The notes: generated by a model from the sequence alone, not told the origin. Shown: positions 2,700-15,304, counted from the first letter of the stretch. The stretch: 48,627 nt of DNA from Anaerolineales bacterium UBA3071 (GCA_002366755.1 DFBV01000018.1:15508-64134); one strand, 5' to 3'. Made by a program: numbers and translations.

Positions 2700-3635
2700 A
2701 TGGACAAGATCTTTAGCTACATACCCACCTTCCCACCAGCGACCATCGCCTTGCTCGCTGCCATCTGGGTGGGCTGGCTGGTCTGGGAATTCGCAGGGAG
2801 AAGTACGTTCTTCGCCAGTCGCGCTCGCAAGCGGGCGGCGGAGATCCTCAGCGGGGATGCCGCGCTGGAGGACATGGCCCGCACCCCTCTGGAGCGGGAC
2901 TTGCGGGCCTCCGGGTTCAACCTGGGAGAGGGGGCGCCGGCCAAGTTCACGATGATCCGCCTGGGGCTGGCTGCTGTGGGCTACGTCCTGATGACCGCCT
3001 TCAACACGCCGCCCATCATCGCCCTGGTGGGTGCGGGGCTGGCCTCCTGGTTTCCTCGCTCCTACATCGCCGGGCGGGCCCAGGGGCGGGGACGCCAAAT
3101 CGACGAGGAGATGCCGGCCACACTGACCCGCGTGGCCTCGCTCATCAACCTGCAGCCCGACGTGATCGAGCTGCTGGCCCAGGTAGCCAACTCGCTGCTG
3201 GCGGCCAATCCCGGCTCGCTCCTGGCCCAGGAATTGAAGACCACGGTGGCTCAGGCACGCACCTCCGGGGCGGAGCAAGCCCTGCAGGATCTGGAGCTTC
3301 GCGCCCCTTCGACGGCCTTAGCCTCGCTGGCCTTTTCCCTGCGCACCTACGCCCAGGCCGGTGGCGCGTATGCCAGTGTGCTCATCCAGTCGGCGCAGCG
3401 GTCGCGGGCCATCATCGCCGGGCGCAACCGGGCGCGTTCCAAGTCGGCGGAGGCTACCACGGCAGCCAAGGCCATCCCCTTGTTGCTCTTGGCGGTGAGC
3501 GTCGTGCTGTTGCAGGATCCCATCTTCCGCCAGTTCTACAGATCCTTCGCCGGCCAGGTGGTGGTGGTGGGCACGGTCATGGCCATGCTCTACGGGTACA
3601 CTGTCATCAAGAGCATGGTCGAGGACGTGGGGTGA
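2700..3635 (+). CDS. tadB: TadB-like (T2SS F-family) inner membrane pilus platform protein
   Basis: Polytopic membrane protein following tadA. AAAGGAG SD lies before ATG 2700. Confidence 0.8.
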   Translation: MDKIFSYIPTFPPATIALLAAIWVGWLVWEFAGRSTFFASRARKRAAEILSGDAALEDMARTPLERDLRASGFNLGEGAPAKFTMIRLGLAAVGYVLMTAFNTPPIIALVGAGLASWFPRSYIAGRAQGRGRQIDEEMPATLTRVASLINLQPDVIELLAQVANSLLAANPGSLLAQELKTTVAQARTSGAEQALQDLELRAPSTALASLAFSLRTYAQAGGAYASVLIQSAQRSRAIIAGRNRARSKSAEATTAAKAIPLLLLAVSVVLLQDPIFRQFYRSFAGQVVVVGTVMAMLYGYTVIKSMVEDVG

Positions 3636-3723
3636 AGTAGACAAGGAAACAAGTACACAAGTAGACAAGGAGTAGCAAGGAATAAGTCCTTGTCTACTTG
3701 TTTCCTTATGTACTTGTCTACTT
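3636..3723. repeat. Second copy of the GTAGACAAG-word hairpin (after tadB)
   Basis: AGTAGACAAGGAAACAAGTACACAAGTAGACAAGG ... CCTTGTCTACTTGTTTCCTTATGTACTTGTCTACT. Confidence 0.75.
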
Positions 3724-7449: not shown

Positions 7450-7561
7450 GGAGCTCGGTGTGGATCTTGAGCAGAGGAGCAGAGGTGCCAGGGTGCGGAG
7501 GAGAGTTCTCCTTTGCTCCCCTGCTCCCCATGTCCTCTGCTCAGGTTCCCCACCGAGTTCC
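7450..7561. repeat. ~110-nt hairpin of GAGCAGAGG words
   Basis: GGAGCTCGGTGTGG...GAGCAGAGGAGCAGAGG ... CCTCTGCTC...CCCCACCGAGTTCC. Confidence 0.65.
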
Positions 7562-8610: not shown

Positions 8611-9330
8611 CTAAAGCCGGGGGGTTCCCGACACGGGACTTGCGAGGTTAGGGTCTGAATGCACCGAGGCACATCCCTTTACCCCATCGGGCCGGAGACC
8701 AACGTCTCCAGTCTGGCCCTCCGAAGAAGGCCGGGCGGTGTCAGGCCACCCATGCCACAGAGCACCTGGCCCTGCGGCAGCGATGTTGCGTGCAGCGACG
8801 ACGTCGGCGTTGGCTTGGTAGCCGCAACGCACACAGCGGAAAAGCCCTTGTTTGCGACGGTTGGCACGGCTGGCATGGCCGCACTGGGGGCAGGTCTTGG
8901 ATGTGCCACGCGGGTCACAGAAGACGACAGGCACGCCTTCCCTTTCTGCCTTGTAGCGGATCATGTCCACCAACTGGCGAAAGGCCCAAGAGGAGATCAT
9001 GCGGTTGAACCGCTTGCTGCCCTGCGTGCGGTGGCGGATACCATCCAGCCGCTCCAAGACGATGACCGGGTTGGGGTATTCCAAGGCCAGGTCGATGATC
9101 TGACGGCTGATCTTGTGGTTGGTGTCGCGCATCCAGCGAGCCTCTTTGCCCTGGCCGGCTCTCACACGGTCGGTACGACGGTGGCGCTGGTAGCGCCGTC
9201 GCAGATCGGCGAAGTGCTCCCGCCGCCAGCGGTCCGCCTTGCCGTCGAAGATGACCACCCGGTCCGGCGTAGCCACCACGGCGTGCCGCACGATGCCAAG
9301 ATCGACGCCAAGAAAAGTGTGTTTACCGGA
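8611..9330 (-). pseudogene. tnpB: TnpB (IS200/IS605 OrfB) C-terminal fragment: RuvC-I/II/III plus zinc ribbon, no N-terminal half
   Basis: FLGVDLGI (RuvC-I), VIVLERL (RuvC-II), CPQCGH...CVRCGY zinc ribbon, NADVVAARNI (RuvC-III). The frame is open only from about 9390 and has no WED/REC part. Confidence 0.8.
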
Positions 9331-10241: not shown

Positions 10242-10949
10242 CTATGAGGATGAAGCCAAACGCTCTGCGTTGGATATGATCCGTCCATCTTGTAACTCAT
10301 ACACCACTGCGGCGTACTCCTCGACGGTGGGATCATGGCTGGCCACCAGCACCGTCGTCCCCTCCTGGGCCACGATGCGTTGCAAAAGCGTCATGATCTG
10401 GCGGCCGGTACCGCTGTCCAATTCGCCCGTCGGCTCGTCGGCCAGGATGAGCGGAGGGCTGAGCGCCAGGGCGCGAGCGATGGCCAACCGTTGCTGCTGC
10501 CCGCCGGACATCTCGTAGGGACGGTGATCGGCCCATCGTGCGAGCCCGACCAGGGCCAGGCACTCCCGTACCCGCTCACGTCGCTTTCGAGCGCCAAGGC
10601 CAGCGATGCGCAGCAGCAGGTCCACGTTTTCCCAGGCGGAGAAAGTAGGCAGGAGGGCAAAAGACTGGAACACGAAGCCGATGCGCTGCCGCCGCAGGCG
10701 GGTTCGCTCCCCTTCCGCAAGGCGGGTGATCTCTTGCCCTTCGACGAAGACCTGGCCGGACGTGGGCCGATCCAGCCCGCCGATGCAGTTGAGCAGTGTG
10801 GTCTTGCCGGAGCCGGAGCGTCCCTTGATGGCCACGAAGATGCCGGGGGGGATTTCCAGGTCCACCCCGCGCAGGGCGTGTACCTCCTGGCCTCCAGCGC
10901 GGTAGACGCGCCTCAATCCGACCGTCTGCACGATGGGGGTTTTTCTCAT
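10242..10949 (-). CDS. ABC transporter ATP-binding protein (MacB/LolD-like)
   Basis: Walker A GRSGSGKTT, signature SGGQQQR, Walker B LILADEPT. Its start overlaps the upstream gene's stop (ATGA). Confidence 0.9.
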   Translation of the reverse strand: MRKTPIVQTVGLRRVYRAGGQEVHALRGVDLEIPPGIFVAIKGRSGSGKTTLLNCIGGLDRPTSGQVFVEGQEITRLAEGERTRLRRQRIGFVFQSFALLPTFSAWENVDLLLRIAGLGARKRRERVRECLALVGLARWADHRPYEMSGGQQQRLAIARALALSPPLILADEPTGELDSGTGRQIMTLLQRIVAQEGTTVLVASHDPTVEEYAAVVYELQDGRIISNAERLASSS

Positions 10950-12013
10950 TTGCTCACCTCGCCAAACCCCTGGTAGTTTGGGTCCACTCTCTTTCTCCTA
11001 CGAGCCCACCAGCCGCGCAGCCCTCTCCGCCGGGGTGCAGGTGGTTCCTCCTCCAATCCGGCCAGCAGCGGCGCGGCCACCTTCCGGCGGACGCCGGCCG
11101 GCCGGATCAGCAGCCCCTCGTCCGCCGGCTCCAGCCGCACCCGCTCGCCGATGCCGTATTGCTCTCGATACTCCTCCGGGATCTGCAGCCGCCCCGCCGA
11201 GTCCAGCAGCACGTATTCAGAGTAGAGAGCCTTTTCACTCTCCTCTGCTTCCTCTCCGCTCTCCCCCCTCTCTTCTCCCCTCTCTTCTCTGACCACCTCC
11301 GTGGCTGTCTTGCCATCGCGGATAGCCACCACCCGATCCACCCACGCCGCCAGCCCCGCGTCGTGGCTGACGATGACCGTGGTCAGGCCGTAGTTGCGGT
11401 TCAGGCGGCGGAAGGCGTCGAAGATGGTCTGGGCGGTGGCCGAATCCACCTCGCCGGTCGGCTCGTCGGCCAGGAGCAGCGGTGGCTGGTTGGCCAGGGC
11501 CACGGCGATGGCCGCCCGCTGCTGCTCGCCGCCCGAAAGCTCCGCCAGCCGGTGATGACGGCGCGCTGCGAGCCCTACCGCCTCCAGCAGCTCCCGCGTG
11601 CGAGCCTGCTTCTGGCTCCACCGGCTGCCAGCTACGGTCATGGGCAGCTCCACGTTCTCCTGGACCGTAAGGTAGGGGATCAGGTTGCGGGCCGACTGCT
11701 GCCAGACGAAGCCGACGCGGGTGCGGCGGTAGCGGTTCAGTGCGGTGTCCGAAAGCTTGAGCAGATCCTGGCCCTTGACCGTCACCTGCCCTGCGGAAGG
11801 CCGGTCCAGCCCGCCCAGGATGTTCAGCAGCGTGGTCTTGCCGGAGCCAGAAGGGCCCACGATGCCCAGCATCTCCCCCGGCTCCACGCGCAGATCCAGC
11901 CCCTGCAAGGCCACCACCTCCAACTCGGCGACCTTGTAGATCTTGACCAGATTGTTACAGACGATCAGAGGAGAGATGGGAGAGGAGAGAGGCGAGTTGC
12001 CTGGTCTGGTCAT
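10946..12013 (-). CDS. ABC transporter ATP-binding protein with C-terminal AbrB/SpoVT-like extension
   Basis: [24 protein letters not shown]. The C-terminal ~110 aa contain [32 protein letters not shown], plus an in-frame [13 protein letters not shown] repeat insertion. Confidence 0.85.
11238..11290. repeat. CT-rich simple repeat inside an ABC ATPase gene (translated as [13 protein letters not shown])
   Basis: CTCTCCTCTGCTTCCTCTCCGCTCTCCCCCCTCTCTTCTCCCCTCTCTTCTCTG. Confidence 0.7.
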
Positions 12014-12042
12014 GACTTCTCCTTCCTCTCCTCTCTCCTCTG
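11966..12042. repeat. GA-rich arm plus CT-rich arm forming a hairpin across the 4HB stop / ATPase start
   Basis: CAGAGGAGAGATGGGAGAGGAGAGAGGCG (11966-11994) and CTTCTCCTTCCTCTCCTCTCTCCTCTG (12016-12042). Confidence 0.7.
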
Positions 12043-12399
12043 ATTTTTCATCTCTGCTTCCATCAGTCCCCAGAGCATGGCTGCTACTTCGTCACCATCG
12101 CGATAGAAAGCGGCGTAAGTCGCGTTATCCATGAAACCTCGTTTCCGCACCAGGGCCATGATGCCGATTACCTCGTAGGTTGAGCCTTTGGCGTGATCGT
12201 AGAAAGCGCGGCGTGATCTGGCCGTACGCTTGCCACTGCCTTCCGTAATGTTGGCGACTATGGACACCGCTGCCCGCCGCACCTGATCGCCGAAAGAGGA
12301 TTGCATTGTCTCCGGCCATCGAAGCGACTCACTAACCGCCCGGTCCGCAAAATCCAGCGCCTTTGGCCACACTTGCAGTCTCTCGTAACGAAACGCCAT
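12010..12399 (-). CDS. Four-helix-bundle protein (23S rRNA intervening-sequence protein family)
   Basis: MAFRYERLQVWPKALDFA...SIVANITEGSGKRT...FYDHAKGSTYEV matches the family signature. Stop overlaps the ATPase start (ATGA). Bracketed by CT/GA repeats. Confidence 0.8.
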   Translation of the reverse strand: MAFRYERLQVWPKALDFADRAVSESLRWPETMQSSFGDQVRRAAVSIVANITEGSGKRTARSRRAFYDHAKGSTYEVIGIMALVRKRGFMDNATYAAFYRDGDEVAAMLWGLMEAEMKNQRREERKEKS

Positions 12400-12436
12400 C
12401 TCTATCTCTCCTCTCTCCTCTCTGTTCTCTCCTCTG
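12400..12436. repeat. CT-rich simple repeat between permease stop and 4HB start
   Basis: TCTCTATCTCTCCTCTCTCCTCTCTGTTCTCTCCTCTG. Confidence 0.7.
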
Positions 12437-15304
12437 TCAGACCGCTTCGCCCAGCTTGACCGCCTCAAACACGCGCATGCGCACCAGCAGCACGGCCAGC
12501 ACCGCTACGGCCACGGCCAGCATGGCCCCGAAAATACCACAGATGACCAACAGGTCGCTCCAGGCGATGCGCACGATGAAGGGCGGCGTCTGAGGGCCAA
12601 CCTGCAGGAAGGGAATGAACAGCCGGCTGGCCCACACGCCCAACCCGGTGCCGATGGCCCCACCGGTGAGGATGATCAGCGCCTGCTCGCCGGCCAGGAA
12701 AGCGACCATCTGCGCCACCGAAAGCCCCACCGCCCGCAGCATCCCCAGCTCGATGAAGCGGCGGCGGAAGGAGACAACGGAGTAGAGCAGGAAGCCCAGC
12801 ACCGTCAGCCCGGCGGCGGCCAGGAAGCCAGTCGTCAACAGGCCGAACAGCCCCTGCCGCTGCGGCCTGCTCTGCTCGGCGACCATCAAGCCCCGCGCAT
12901 CGCCCGCCGCCACCACCCGCAAGCCCAGTTCCCGCACGCCGTCCACCACCGCCGCGGGGTCGGCGTGCTCTTGCAGCCTTAGCCATACGTCGTAGGGGAA
13001 TATCCCGCCCAGTTGCTCGTAGACGTAGTCCAGGTTGGCGACGAAGAAGGGGCCATCTTCGGGATAGACGGTGGGGAAGAGGTCGAGCACCCCGGCCACG
13101 ACGAACTCTATTTCAGCCCGCTCGTCCAGCACCTGCGCGGTGAGCAGCAGCCGATCGCCCACCCCCAGGCCGTGGCGGGCCAGGAAGGCGCGGCTGGCCA
13201 GCAGGTGGTTGCGCCCCAGCGCCAGTTCGTTCATCAGCGCCCCCAGCGATTGGCCGGCACTGAAATCGCGGCGGAAGAAGGCCACCTGCGCGAAGTCCAC
13301 GCGGTCCACCCCGATCAGCCGCCCCGTCTCTCGCCGCTCCCCCAGGCGGGCGATGGCCGTGTAGTCGCCGACGCGAGCCGCAGCCCGCACGCCGTCCACC
13401 TGCAGATGCTCGGAAACGGGCAGGAAAAGCCACTCTCCTCTCTCTCCTCTCTCCTCTCCTATCTCTCCTCTGACCATCTCCTCCGTGCTCTCCCCCAGCT
13501 CGGCCAGGTTCAGGTCGGCCCCCACCTGGTAGTACACCTGGTCCGTCAGGTGTTCGTCCAGGGTCAGGGCCATGGAAGCGGTGAAGGTGGCCAGGCTCAA
13601 AGTCAGGACCAGCAGCAACAGGGGGCCGACGTAGTGGGCCGGAGAGCGGGCCAGGTGGCGCAGGGCCAGCAGCAGCGAGGTCCCCGGCAGCCGTCCGGCC
13701 AGCCAGGAAAGCGCACCCATTAGAGCAGGGAAGAAGCGGGCGCAAACGAGAGCCAGTCCGAAGCAGAAGAGAGCCGGCACCAGGAACAGCAGGGGGTTCT
13801 GGAAGGGATCGCCGCCAGCGAGTCCTCCGCCCAGGATGGAGATGGTGCCCCGCTGGCGCAGCACGTAGTAGCCGTAGAGAGGTGGAACGAGCAGGAGCAG
13901 GTCCAGGAAGTAGCGCTGCCAAAGCGGGCGGCGCAGCGTGCGGGCCACTTCCTGCTTGTAGGTGACGATGGTGTGGCGCGAAGCGGCCAGGCTGGGGAGA
14001 ACGCTGGCGCAGAGGCCGGCAACCACCGCTCCCAGGGCGAAATAGACGCTGCTGGGGGAAAGGCGCACAGGCAAGCGGGAGCGGTTGGTCAGGACGCCGG
14101 GATCGAGGAAGGTACGCACGGAGCCCAGGAGTTGGGCCAGCGCCCTTCCCAGGGCCAACCCCGCGACGGCAGCCACGGCGCCGACGAGCAGCCCTTCCAG
14201 CAGGTAGATGCCAATCACCTGCCAGCGCGACGCGCCGCGGCTGCGCAGGACGGCGATCTCGTTCTGCTGGCGGCGCACCACCATGCCGCCGATGAGGCCG
14301 GTGAAGTAAAGGATCAGCCCCAGCAGGGGCAGGCTGAAGACGGTGAGCTGGATGGTCAGAAGGCGCGCCTGGCGGCGGTAGGCCCGCAGCGCGTCGAGGG
14401 GTGAGACGTCCAGGCTGGTGTTGGAAAGCAGGGACGCCGCCCGCGCCTGCACCGTCGCCACCCGCGCCAGGAAACGGGATACGTCGGCGGTGCGGACGCT
14501 CTGCCCGTCGAAGAGCATGTACCAGGCGGCCTGATAGACCTCGTCGGGCAGGGCCGGGGCCAACCGCTGCGCAAAGGTCGCTTCCGGCACCAGCAGCACC
14601 TCGTCGAAGGTCTGCGGCGCGTAGAACCAGAAGGGATCGGCTGCATCGCGCGCCTGCCAGAGCCCGGCAATGCGCACCGGCAGTTGGATCAGTTCTCGCT
14701 TGCCGAAGAGCACGTAGCGCTCGCCGACCTGCAAGCCCAGCTCCTCGGCCAGTGGCCGGCTGACGAGCACCTCGATGACCTCGTCTTCTGCCGTCGCCGG
14801 CCGGGGGAACTGCCCCTCGATCAGGTCAACGTAGCTCTCCAGGCTGCTGATGAAGGCCAGGCTGGTCCAGAGCAGCGGTTGCCGGCGGGCGTAGGCCCCG
14901 GATTCTCCCTCCCGGGTGAAGAGCCGGAGATTGTCGGTTCGCACGTGGCGGACGGCCAGCTCCAGTGGCAGCCCCAGCGCCGCCGGGGACTGTTCCATCA
15001 GGTAACCGTTGATGGGCTGGTAGGTGTCCCACTCCACCGCTCCGTGCCAGGCTCCGATGTAGCGAAACAGGAAGGCGAAGGGCCTGCCCTGAGCACCGTC
15101 GAAGGGAGGGCGTGTGCTCTCCTCGCTTGCCAATTCCTCGTGCAGCAACCGGAAGTGCACGGCGTCGGCGTAGAGGGGGATGCTGGTGCTCAGGGCCACG
15201 GCGGCCAGCAACCCCGCCAGCAGGCAGCCCATCAGCGTGCGCTGGTTCCAGATGCGCCTGGCGGCGATGAGGATGATGGACAGAAGGTTAAGCAAGAGGT
15301 TCAT
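12437..15304 (-). CDS. ABC transporter permease with two FtsX-type domains (MacB/YbbP-like), 955 aa
   Basis: Repeated FtsX-like TM bundles with large extracytoplasmic domains. Start set at ATG 15304 (MNLLLNLLSIILIAARR). Carries an in-frame GEIGEERGERGE insertion. Confidence 0.85.
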   Translation of the reverse strand: MNLLLNLLSIILIAARRIWNQRTLMGCLLAGLLAAVALSTSIPLYADAVHFRLLHEELASEESTRPPFDGAQGRPFAFLFRYIGAWHGAVEWDTYQPINGYLMEQSPAALGLPLELAVRHVRTDNLRLFTREGESGAYARRQPLLWTSLAFISSLESYVDLIEGQFPRPATAEDEVIEVLVSRPLAEELGLQVGERYVLFGKRELIQLPVRIAGLWQARDAADPFWFYAPQTFDEVLLVPEATFAQRLAPALPDEVYQAAWYMLFDGQSVRTADVSRFLARVATVQARAASLLSNTSLDVSPLDALRAYRRQARLLTIQLTVFSLPLLGLILYFTGLIGGMVVRRQQNEIAVLRSRGASRWQVIGIYLLEGLLVGAVAAVAGLALGRALAQLLGSVRTFLDPGVLTNRSRLPVRLSPSSVYFALGAVVAGLCASVLPSLAASRHTIVTYKQEVARTLRRPLWQRYFLDLLLLVPPLYGYYVLRQRGTISILGGGLAGGDPFQNPLLFLVPALFCFGLALVCARFFPALMGALSWLAGRLPGTSLLLALRHLARSPAHYVGPLLLLVLTLSLATFTASMALTLDEHLTDQVYYQVGADLNLAELGESTEEMVRGEIGEERGERGEWLFLPVSEHLQVDGVRAAARVGDYTAIARLGERRETGRLIGVDRVDFAQVAFFRRDFSAGQSLGALMNELALGRNHLLASRAFLARHGLGVGDRLLLTAQVLDERAEIEFVVAGVLDLFPTVYPEDGPFFVANLDYVYEQLGGIFPYDVWLRLQEHADPAAVVDGVRELGLRVVAAGDARGLMVAEQSRPQRQGLFGLLTTGFLAAAGLTVLGFLLYSVVSFRRRFIELGMLRAVGLSVAQMVAFLAGEQALIILTGGAIGTGLGVWASRLFIPFLQVGPQTPPFIVRIAWSDLLVICGIFGAMLAVAVAVLAVLLVRMRVFEAVKLGEAV
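13433..13472. repeat. CT-rich simple repeat inside the permease gene (translated as GEIGEERGERGE)
   Basis: CTCTCCTCTCTCTCCTCTCTCCTCTCCTATCTCTCCTCTG. Confidence 0.7.

Follow-up and report, generated by a model that had tools for sequence, protein, structure and literature searches.

Proteins of the PF05635 family, together with the stem-flanked intervening sequences in which they occur, have to our knowledge had no assigned function for about 30 years. Here we describe a PF05635 gene in a 48,627-nt stretch of DNA from Anaerolineales bacterium UBA3071 (GCA_002366755.1, DFBV01000018.1:15508-64134; this whole stretch is hereafter called the window, and all positions are counted from its first letter). 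The source genome, labelled G000, is a 2.55-Mb, 74%-complete metagenome-assembled genome (MAG) of the Anaerolineae (Chloroflexota). The gene encodes a four-helix-bundle (4HB) protein, separates a permease gene from an ATPase gene within an ABC operon, and is flanked on both sides by arrays of one heptamer in inverted orientation. We consider it fairly probable that this arrangement is a cassette resembling the intervening sequences (IVS) of rRNA, which is fixed at one site, which seeds translated arrays in the neighbouring genes, and whose heptamer arms bound a unit of recombination.

The closest described system is the IVS found in the 23S rRNA of Coxiella burnetii, Leptospira and Xanthomonas, where a PF05635 open reading frame (ORF) sits in a long stem formed by inverted flanks (PMC4990558). 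Tandem GACAGAT heptamers (three copies, with strain-to-strain variation in number) lie directly upstream of the S23p ORF in Coxiella, where RNase III excises the IVS; the element has been suggested to be selfish or mobile (Warrier et al. 2016, PMC4990558). The present locus shares with the 23S rRNA IVS the PF05635 ORF between inverted flanks as well as tandem heptamers of variable copy number upstream of the ORF, a single unit separating two members of its family (L088 and L089, described below). However, the IVS occupies helix 25 or 45 of 23S rRNA, whereas the cassette lies in an mRNA operon between protein genes; the IVS gene is decaying, whereas the 4HB gene is under purifying selection; and the cassette has one arm translated within the downstream protein and arrays of its unit in neighbouring ORFs. 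What is new in comparison with the known kind of IVS is the fixed site and unit across a family of operons, the translated arm, the invasion of ORFs in two orientations, and a break in divergence at the arms.

Two other classes of element bear comparison. Cyanobacterial short tandemly repeated repetitive (STRR) sequences are heptanucleotide tandem-repeat elements. To these can be added the GGGNATC repeats of Xanthomonas and Nostoc (Rehm 2015, PMC4692102), as well as the 4x heptanucleotide elements of Geobacter metallireducens, which lie within and between genes and are accompanied by looped 5x heptamer sites (Aklujkar 2009, PMC2700814). As in G000, such elements are arrays of 3-10 heptamers that are abundant genome-wide, mostly between co-oriented genes and sometimes intragenic. 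In contrast, the published elements are dispersed single-unit families linked to no gene, while the unit described here is restricted to a single operon, has stayed with a 4HB gene across deep divergence, and occurs as inverted pairs of copies. The second class is the Rickettsia palindromic elements (RPE), which Ogata et al. reportedly found in 2000 to be inserted in frame in protein genes. These have since been reviewed (PMC10969869). In both cases palindromic, repeat-derived DNA is tolerated within ORFs and translated as an extra peptide, as seen here in G000 and in the closest copy of the operon, which is about 90% identical in protein and comes from a Guaymas sediment contig (L086, assembled independently also as L087; orthologous operons carry L numbers throughout). 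RPE differ in forming dispersed families of 100-150 bp, whereas the arrays here are 25-55 nt long, are confined to genes adjacent to the cassette, and occupy variable linkers that were already present.

The features on which the argument depends are as follows:

12437-15304, minus strand: FtsX/MacB-type ABC permease gene (PF02687 and PF12704; start taken as the ATG at 15304, stop at 12437-12439)
12010-12399, minus strand: gene for the 4HB protein, 129 aa (PF05635 / TIGR02436, and dN/dS among orthologues)
10946-12013, minus strand: ABC ATPase gene, with a LolD/MacB-like nucleotide-binding domain and a C-terminal domain (profiles and translation)
13431-13475, minus strand: A1, an AGGAGAG array lying in frame where the permease has a hypervariable linker, giving GEIGEERGERGEW; the L086 array differs in length
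12400-12436, minus strand: A2, the upstream arm, directly 3' of the permease stop; in 10 orthologous cassettes, an arm of this family likewise adjoins the stop
12016-12044, minus strand: A3, direct array in the 3' end of the 4HB ORF, read ...RREERKEKS, and the 5' half of a local hairpin
11966-11996, minus strand: A4, the downstream inverted arm, CUCUCCU on the mRNA, which forms a 10-residue N-terminal extension of the ATPase; 9 further operons translate their arm likewise
11238-11292, minus strand: A5, in-frame array in a hypervariable linker after the ATPase nucleotide-binding domain, encoding an 18-residue peptide

All five arrays are built from one heptamer, AGGAGAG on the coding (minus) strand and CTCTCCT on the plus strand, and lie within 2.3 kb. 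Because matches to the motif are spaced 7 nt apart, the tracts are arrays with a period of 7 nt and not plain CT runs. With up to three mismatches, the motif CTCTCCTCTCTCCTCTG has 14 matches in the window against 0.24 expected, all of them in 11231-13472; with up to two mismatches, it has no match elsewhere in the genome. A genome-wide family of this repeat was therefore rejected, the unit being private to this locus. On the mRNA, A1, A2, A3 and A5 are purine-rich, while A4 alone, in the first ATPase codons, is CU-rich and able to pair with any of the GA arrays. A4 ends in CCTCTGATC, which encodes P-L-I, the conserved start motif of the ATPase.

A1, A2, A5 and A4 (reverse-complemented) can be aligned starting at a shared boundary that is not itself repetitive, (T/A)CAGAG(G/A)AGAG, and over 38 nt A1 is 89% identical to reverse-complemented A4. 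From this common boundary and this likeness, we conclude that the arrays are copies of one another and not convergent low-complexity sequence. A3 has the same TCAGAGGAGAG start as the other arrays, but MAFFT set it 14 columns out of register. The GGAG in A2, 8 nt 5' of the 4HB ATG, is likely the Shine-Dalgarno (SD) sequence of the 4HB gene. Around the 4HB ORF, the A2 and A4 arms are 87% complementary over 31 nt (27 of 31 pairs, counted by eye), and the 4HB stop and ATPase start overlap as ATGA at 12010-12013. Much of this anatomy had been recognized in an initial annotation made from the sequence alone: the five copies (four direct, one inverted) and their positions, the peptides read in frame in the permease, in the ATPase linker, at the 4HB C-terminus and at the ATPase N-terminus, the assignment of the 4HB protein to the IVS-type family, the ATGA coupling, and the ability of the arms to pair around the ORF were all confirmed. 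Its description of a CT/GA simple repeat is amended here with respect to the heptameric period of the copies. The 4HB start is also slightly corrected, to the ATG at 12399, by agreement with orthologues.

The cassette was then compared across orthologous operons, whose permeases are 50-92% identical to that of G000. The gene order permease-4HB-ATPase was found in every context fetched (16 loci from 10 protein look-ups, plus L073). Twelve operons, G000 included and all from Anaerolineae, carry this 4HB subfamily, and in 12 of 12 the upstream arm begins within 1-2 bases of the permease stop. This arm belongs to the AGGAGAG family in all of them (mostly CAGAGGAGAG...), and the downstream arm to the CTCTCCT family, usually ending in TCTCCTCTGAT or a near variant; both are degenerate in some operons (L091, L092). 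The downstream arm runs directly into the conserved L/F-I-x-C-D-N codons of the ATPase, and in all 12 operons it is translated as an S/P/L-rich N-terminal extension of that protein. Across these operons, the unit thus travels with the gene even where permease identity is 50-60%. The near-identical L088 and L089, from two samples (ENA ERZ27256783 and ERZ27256798), differ by one 7-nt GTAGAGA unit in the upstream arm.

Most orthologous operons have no cassette, and their permease-ATPase gap ranges from -45 to about +70 nt. In the operon tree, cassette-bearing operons fall into several groups interleaved with empty ones, and the cassette-less L045 is the sister of G000 and L086. Four of the empty operons (L050, L051, L054 and L056) have gene-less hairpins of 7- or 8-mers of other units at the very same junction, so the permease-ATPase junction is a preferred home for array hairpins generally. 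Judging from these comparisons, the cassette has long resided at one fixed site in a single family of MacB-type operons and is not a recent or dispersed mobile element.

Arrays inside the two flanking genes, hereafter satellites, are gained and lost. In G000 and L086, both ORFs remain intact with in-frame arrays that are present in one operon and absent in the other, and the differences of L086 from G000 are concentrated at arrays. L086 has an additional 24-nt GA array, encoding a 10-residue peptide, at a GAG-GGA-GAA site where G000 has none; an additional 21-nt CT array read as SPLPFSPLRSPISPLP where G000 has SILGGGLAGG; and a hairpin of GA and CT arrays at the site of the GA array A5. CT-oriented arrays are found in the permease of L073, together with a translated hairpin in its ATPase linker, and a heptamer array in the ATPase linker is present in L045, L049, L084, L073 and L086. 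In the clade that includes L082 and L088-L095, the arms are present and the satellites absent. Satellites thus occur in either orientation, with GA arrays yielding EERGE (E/R/G) peptides and CT arrays yielding SPLSP (S/P/L) peptides. Because the two orientations give unrelated peptides, it is the DNA that is primary, and the protein simply tolerates its presence. A target duplication was looked for at filled and empty satellite sites and none was seen; these sites look like expansion at microhomology or local replacement. Elsewhere in the permease, at about 15070-15110 (codons for RPPFDGAQGRPFAF), 24 nt are inserted in G000 relative to L086; this insertion is not heptamer-like and is bracketed by a CCCTTCG direct repeat.

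The interior of the cassette probably has a history distinct from that of its flanks. When G000 is aligned with L086, the permease and ATPase genes show 85-93% nucleotide identity, whereas the stretch from A2 to A4 shows 55-75%; identity is regained immediately past A4. The difference at four-fold degenerate sites is 0.31 in the flanks (n=677) and 0.73 in the 4HB gene (n=44, saturated; Fisher p=5e-8). The NG86 method gives synonymous divergences of 0.53 and 0.64 in the flanks and yields no computable value within the 4HB gene. In a control pair with similar flank divergence (L094 and L095), the corresponding four-fold values of 0.28 and 0.36 are not significantly different, and therefore cassettes are not intrinsically hypermutable. 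Given an interior saturated at neutral sites between flanks that are not, the most likely account is that one lineage had its interior replaced by a divergent allele. The comparison suggests crossovers in the conserved arms or close to them, with the boxed gene being exchanged in one piece. This argument is based on the four-fold sites and the identity profile, and not on the 4HB protein tree. A candidate reading in which the 4HB gene would be better conserved than its host genes, as expected under homing, was rejected, since the L086 flanks are about 90% identical to those of G000 and its 4HB only 63-65%.

We propose that these observations could be joined as follows. The PF05635 gene is boxed by inverted heptamer arrays, AGGAGAG upstream and CTCTCCT downstream, and the box fits exactly between the permease stop codon and the conserved ATPase start (P-L/F-I-x-C-D-N). 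The arrays act as a self-similar DNA repeat, keeping their complementarity across the gene and changing length in 7-nt steps. Additional copies, oriented either way, turn up in those linkers and loops of the two flanking genes that tolerate them, and those that survive there are stop-free and in frame. The anatomy, its conservation, the turnover of arrays and the divergence break are directly observed, whereas the copying mechanism is one that we infer, namely template switching or gene conversion where microhomology rich in purines or pyrimidines occurs. The arms would, finally, bound a recombination unit, the interior of which would have been swapped for a divergent allele in one lineage. 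Spread of the repeat into coding regions, with both orientations translated, would then be a source of linker and loop variation in conserved transport proteins.

To this can be added a predicted RNA structure at the 4HB-ATPase junction:

11955-12060, minus strand: A3:A4 hairpin with a folding energy of -49.9 kcal/mol (z = -4.9, matched by 0 of 200 shuffles)

In this hairpin, the AUGA formed by the 4HB stop and the ATPase start lies in the loop, and a GGAG 5' of the AUGA lies in the stem. The stem would bury this SD-like GGAG of the ATPase and, from its position over the GGAG and AUGA, translation of the ATPase should depend on ribosomes finishing the 4HB ORF. Because A3 lies inside that ORF, a ribosome completing it would melt the stem and could reinitiate at the AUGA. 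Alternatively, A2 could pair with A4 and enclose the 4HB ORF in the manner of the rRNA intervening sequences, which would make the transcript a potential RNase III substrate. We infer both the translational gating and the RNase III processing from predicted pairing, and the hairpin over the AUGA junction offers a simple model of a cassette gating its downstream gene. A search of Rfam with the hairpin returned nothing but sub-threshold matches resembling miRNA precursors.

Several observations weigh against the cassette as proposed. In the flanking genes, both GEERGE segments of G000 lie in linkers that are hypervariable, and often acidic, in all orthologues, and the G000 versions are not longer; the two G000 satellites are replacements and not net insertions. 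L045 and L049 keep a GA heptamer-like array in the ATPase linker with no 4HB gene, and therefore satellites need no 4HB gene in cis. These points, along with the roughly 99 purine or pyrimidine runs of at least 18 nt in G000, would agree with an explanation in which the GEERGE and SPLSP segments are ordinary low-complexity linkers produced by codon composition and slippage, so that just A2, A3 and A4 belong to the cassette. We nevertheless regard this as quite unlikely. The period is 7 nt in place of 3; A1, A4 and A5 have the non-repetitive boundary G(G/A)TCAGAG in common, in addition to the likeness of A1 to A4; the unit occurs nowhere else in the genome; one DNA family in both orientations gives the unrelated EERGE and SPLSP peptides; and satellites were found only in operon clades that hold or neighbour the cassette.

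With respect to the exchange of the interior, an approximately unbiased (AU) test does not reject G000 and L086 as sisters in the 4HB tree (p=0.56), the protein being too short to resolve it, and lineage-specific acceleration of the 4HB gene is a live alternative. A related explanation would attribute the divergence to local hypermutation or relaxed codon constraint between the hairpin arms, with no replacement of alleles. The AU result is compatible with this, as is the four-fold divergence of the 4HB gene in three other pairs, which is about 1.4 times that of the flanks. On the other hand, the control pair is without excess, dN/dS stays at 0.09-0.18, and the G000 4HB falls in a supported clade (97/92) with alleles of distant operons (L082, L090 and L093) while that of L086 groups elsewhere, and we think hypermutation unlikely. 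The RNA predictions are similarly qualified. A fold of the whole region (11940-12460) is no better than shuffles (z = -1.3), the local A3:A4 hairpin alone being significant; the minimum-free-energy structure prefers A3:A4 over A2:A4; and A3 is absent in some orthologues, such as L086. The arms also pair equally on either strand, the sense strand being the more stable in 5 of 10 operons, so there is no sign of RNA-specific selection.

The 4HB protein itself scores 83.5 bits against PF05635 (cut-off 33.8) and 76.7 bits against TIGR02436 (cut-off 24). The conserved motif of the family is GxxRxxxSxxxNxxE (Zhang et al. 2013, PMC3936711), and here it reads GDQVRRAAVSIVANITE, in which RxxxSxxxNxxE is intact and the G stands two residues away from its place in the motif. 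Homologues fall into 33 clusters at 61-77% identity, and the ratio of nonsynonymous to synonymous substitution rates (dN/dS) given above, calculated among orthologues, shows that the protein is under purifying selection. The sole solved structure matched by sequence is XCC0516 of Xanthomonas campestris (PDB 2GSC; E = 7e-8, residues 6-117), a pentameric four-helix-bundle S23p/IVS protein.

One 4HB subfamily, one unit and one site persisting together across deep divergence point to a specific relationship between protein and repeat. Each PF05635 protein might be a sequence-specific reader of its own heptamer, the two being inherited as a pair, with arms and satellites as cognate sites acting on the operon mRNA or DNA and with the arms as crossover points of allele swapping. 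Such swapping of 4HB alleles through the arms would be somewhat like the movement of integron cassettes, but without an integrase. We put this forward tentatively, as an idea with a rather small chance of being correct; if true, it would supply the function that this family has lacked since the 1990s, and would explain its presence in rRNA intervening sequences.

Outside this locus, the genome brings the number of PF05635 matches to 12, nearly all of them flanked by arrays of 7-8 nt. At these loci, the upstream array is the reverse complement of the downstream array, and the unit differs from locus to locus. In an ungapped count of complementarity over 21 nt, cognate arms agree on average at 16.7 of 21 positions, while non-cognate pairs reach 13.1 +/- 1.1. 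RNAduplex energies had been considered for this comparison and did not discriminate cognate from non-cognate arms, since long loops inflate the energies; they were replaced by the 21-nt count. About 460 7- or 8-mer arrays were found in G000 (TRF score of at least 34), compared with 3 in a shuffled control (score of at least 36). Pairs of arrays that share a unit are over-represented at spacings below 100 nt, corresponding to gene-less hairpins (31 vs 3.2 expected), and at 350-500 nt apart, corresponding to 4HB cassettes (8 vs 0.76 expected), with weak enrichment at 0.5-3 kb (21 vs 10.8 expected). By a crude test (open frame and third-position GC), about 87 of 428 arrays lie in coding-like frames, and translated arrays are probably common in this organism.

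Two further cassettes, on contigs C60 (12539-12853) and C247 (13334-13642), are 76% identical in nucleotide sequence over the gene and its upstream ATCGC(T/G)(G/T) array, and lie in unrelated contexts. This looks like duplication of a whole cassette and is a hint, the second, that cassettes move as units. It would also be expected of an actively transposing element resembling a miniature inverted-repeat transposable element (MITE), mobilized in trans, for example by a nearby TnpB/IS605-type gene, or by the 4HB protein. Such an element would have arms like terminal inverted repeats, which the heptamer arms resemble, and a patchy distribution in the operon tree; the roughly one-fifth of arrays in coding-like frames (by the same crude test) and the TnpB zinc-ribbon-like ORF at 8611-9291, judged from translation alone, are compatible with it too. 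However, all 12 operons with this 4HB subfamily have it at the same junction, the genome holds no dispersed copies of the unit, a target-site duplication is visible neither at the arms nor at the filled and empty satellite sites, and there is no recombinase within the cassette. We consider transposition of this kind very unlikely.

The initial annotation had pictured a small mobile or recombinogenic cassette able to withstand translation. This picture is supported by the turnover of arrays and by the change in divergence where the arms lie, with the caveat, drawn from the comparison of operons, that the cassette is not a recent or dispersed mobile element. Alignment with orthologues, which it had proposed, revealed that the 4HB cassette is indeed missing from most operons but that the GEERGE segments are not net insertions. 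Likewise, a census of the genome recovered other PF05635 genes flanked by arrays, each with its own unit, and no further occurrence of the locus motif, and folding favoured the local A3:A4 hairpin and not the region as a whole.

Other arrays deserve mention in their own right. Examples in the window lie at 2586-2678, 3635-3669 and 7469-7542, and many short-loop inverted pairs have no gene inside. The commonest unit in G000, GGTAGATT/AATCTACC, makes up 37 arrays and also builds the junction hairpins of the Anaerolineae operons L050, L056 and L084; some units are therefore common to several genomes. A motif of the form CCCCCCC-TCTTT-CCCCCCC / GGGGGGG-AAAGA-GGGGGGG was found on at least 10 contigs, including C39, C45, C49, C93, C97, C103, C115 and C121, and the permease linker of L073 contains a translated hairpin of C and G runs resembling it, PSSPPMGGIEGGEG. 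On contig C195 (4835-6152) there is a 4HB pseudogene with one in-frame TGA and arms of the unit AGCGAATC. A 77-nt array of this unit, contained in a coding-like open frame, lies about 0.7 kb upstream of the upstream arm and about 0.9 kb from the 4HB match, and so constitutes a second case of a satellite in a neighbouring ORF.

The remaining genes of the operon in the window are:

17501-15693, minus strand: membrane-fusion protein gene, the first in order on this strand
10242-10949, minus strand: second ABC ATPase gene of the operon (profiles; the gene order is repeated in related contigs)

Neither this ABC operon (E <= 1e-20) nor the 4HB subfamily of this locus was found in G001 and G002, of the same genus, or in G003, of the same family, these three MAGs being 83-92% complete. 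The absence of the operon from the nearest genomes may reflect its lateral acquisition or the incompleteness of the MAGs. Finally, the ORF at 8611-9291 (minus strand) ends in a CxxC...CxxC zinc-ribbon segment, the basis on which its translation resembles TnpB/IS605 OrfB.

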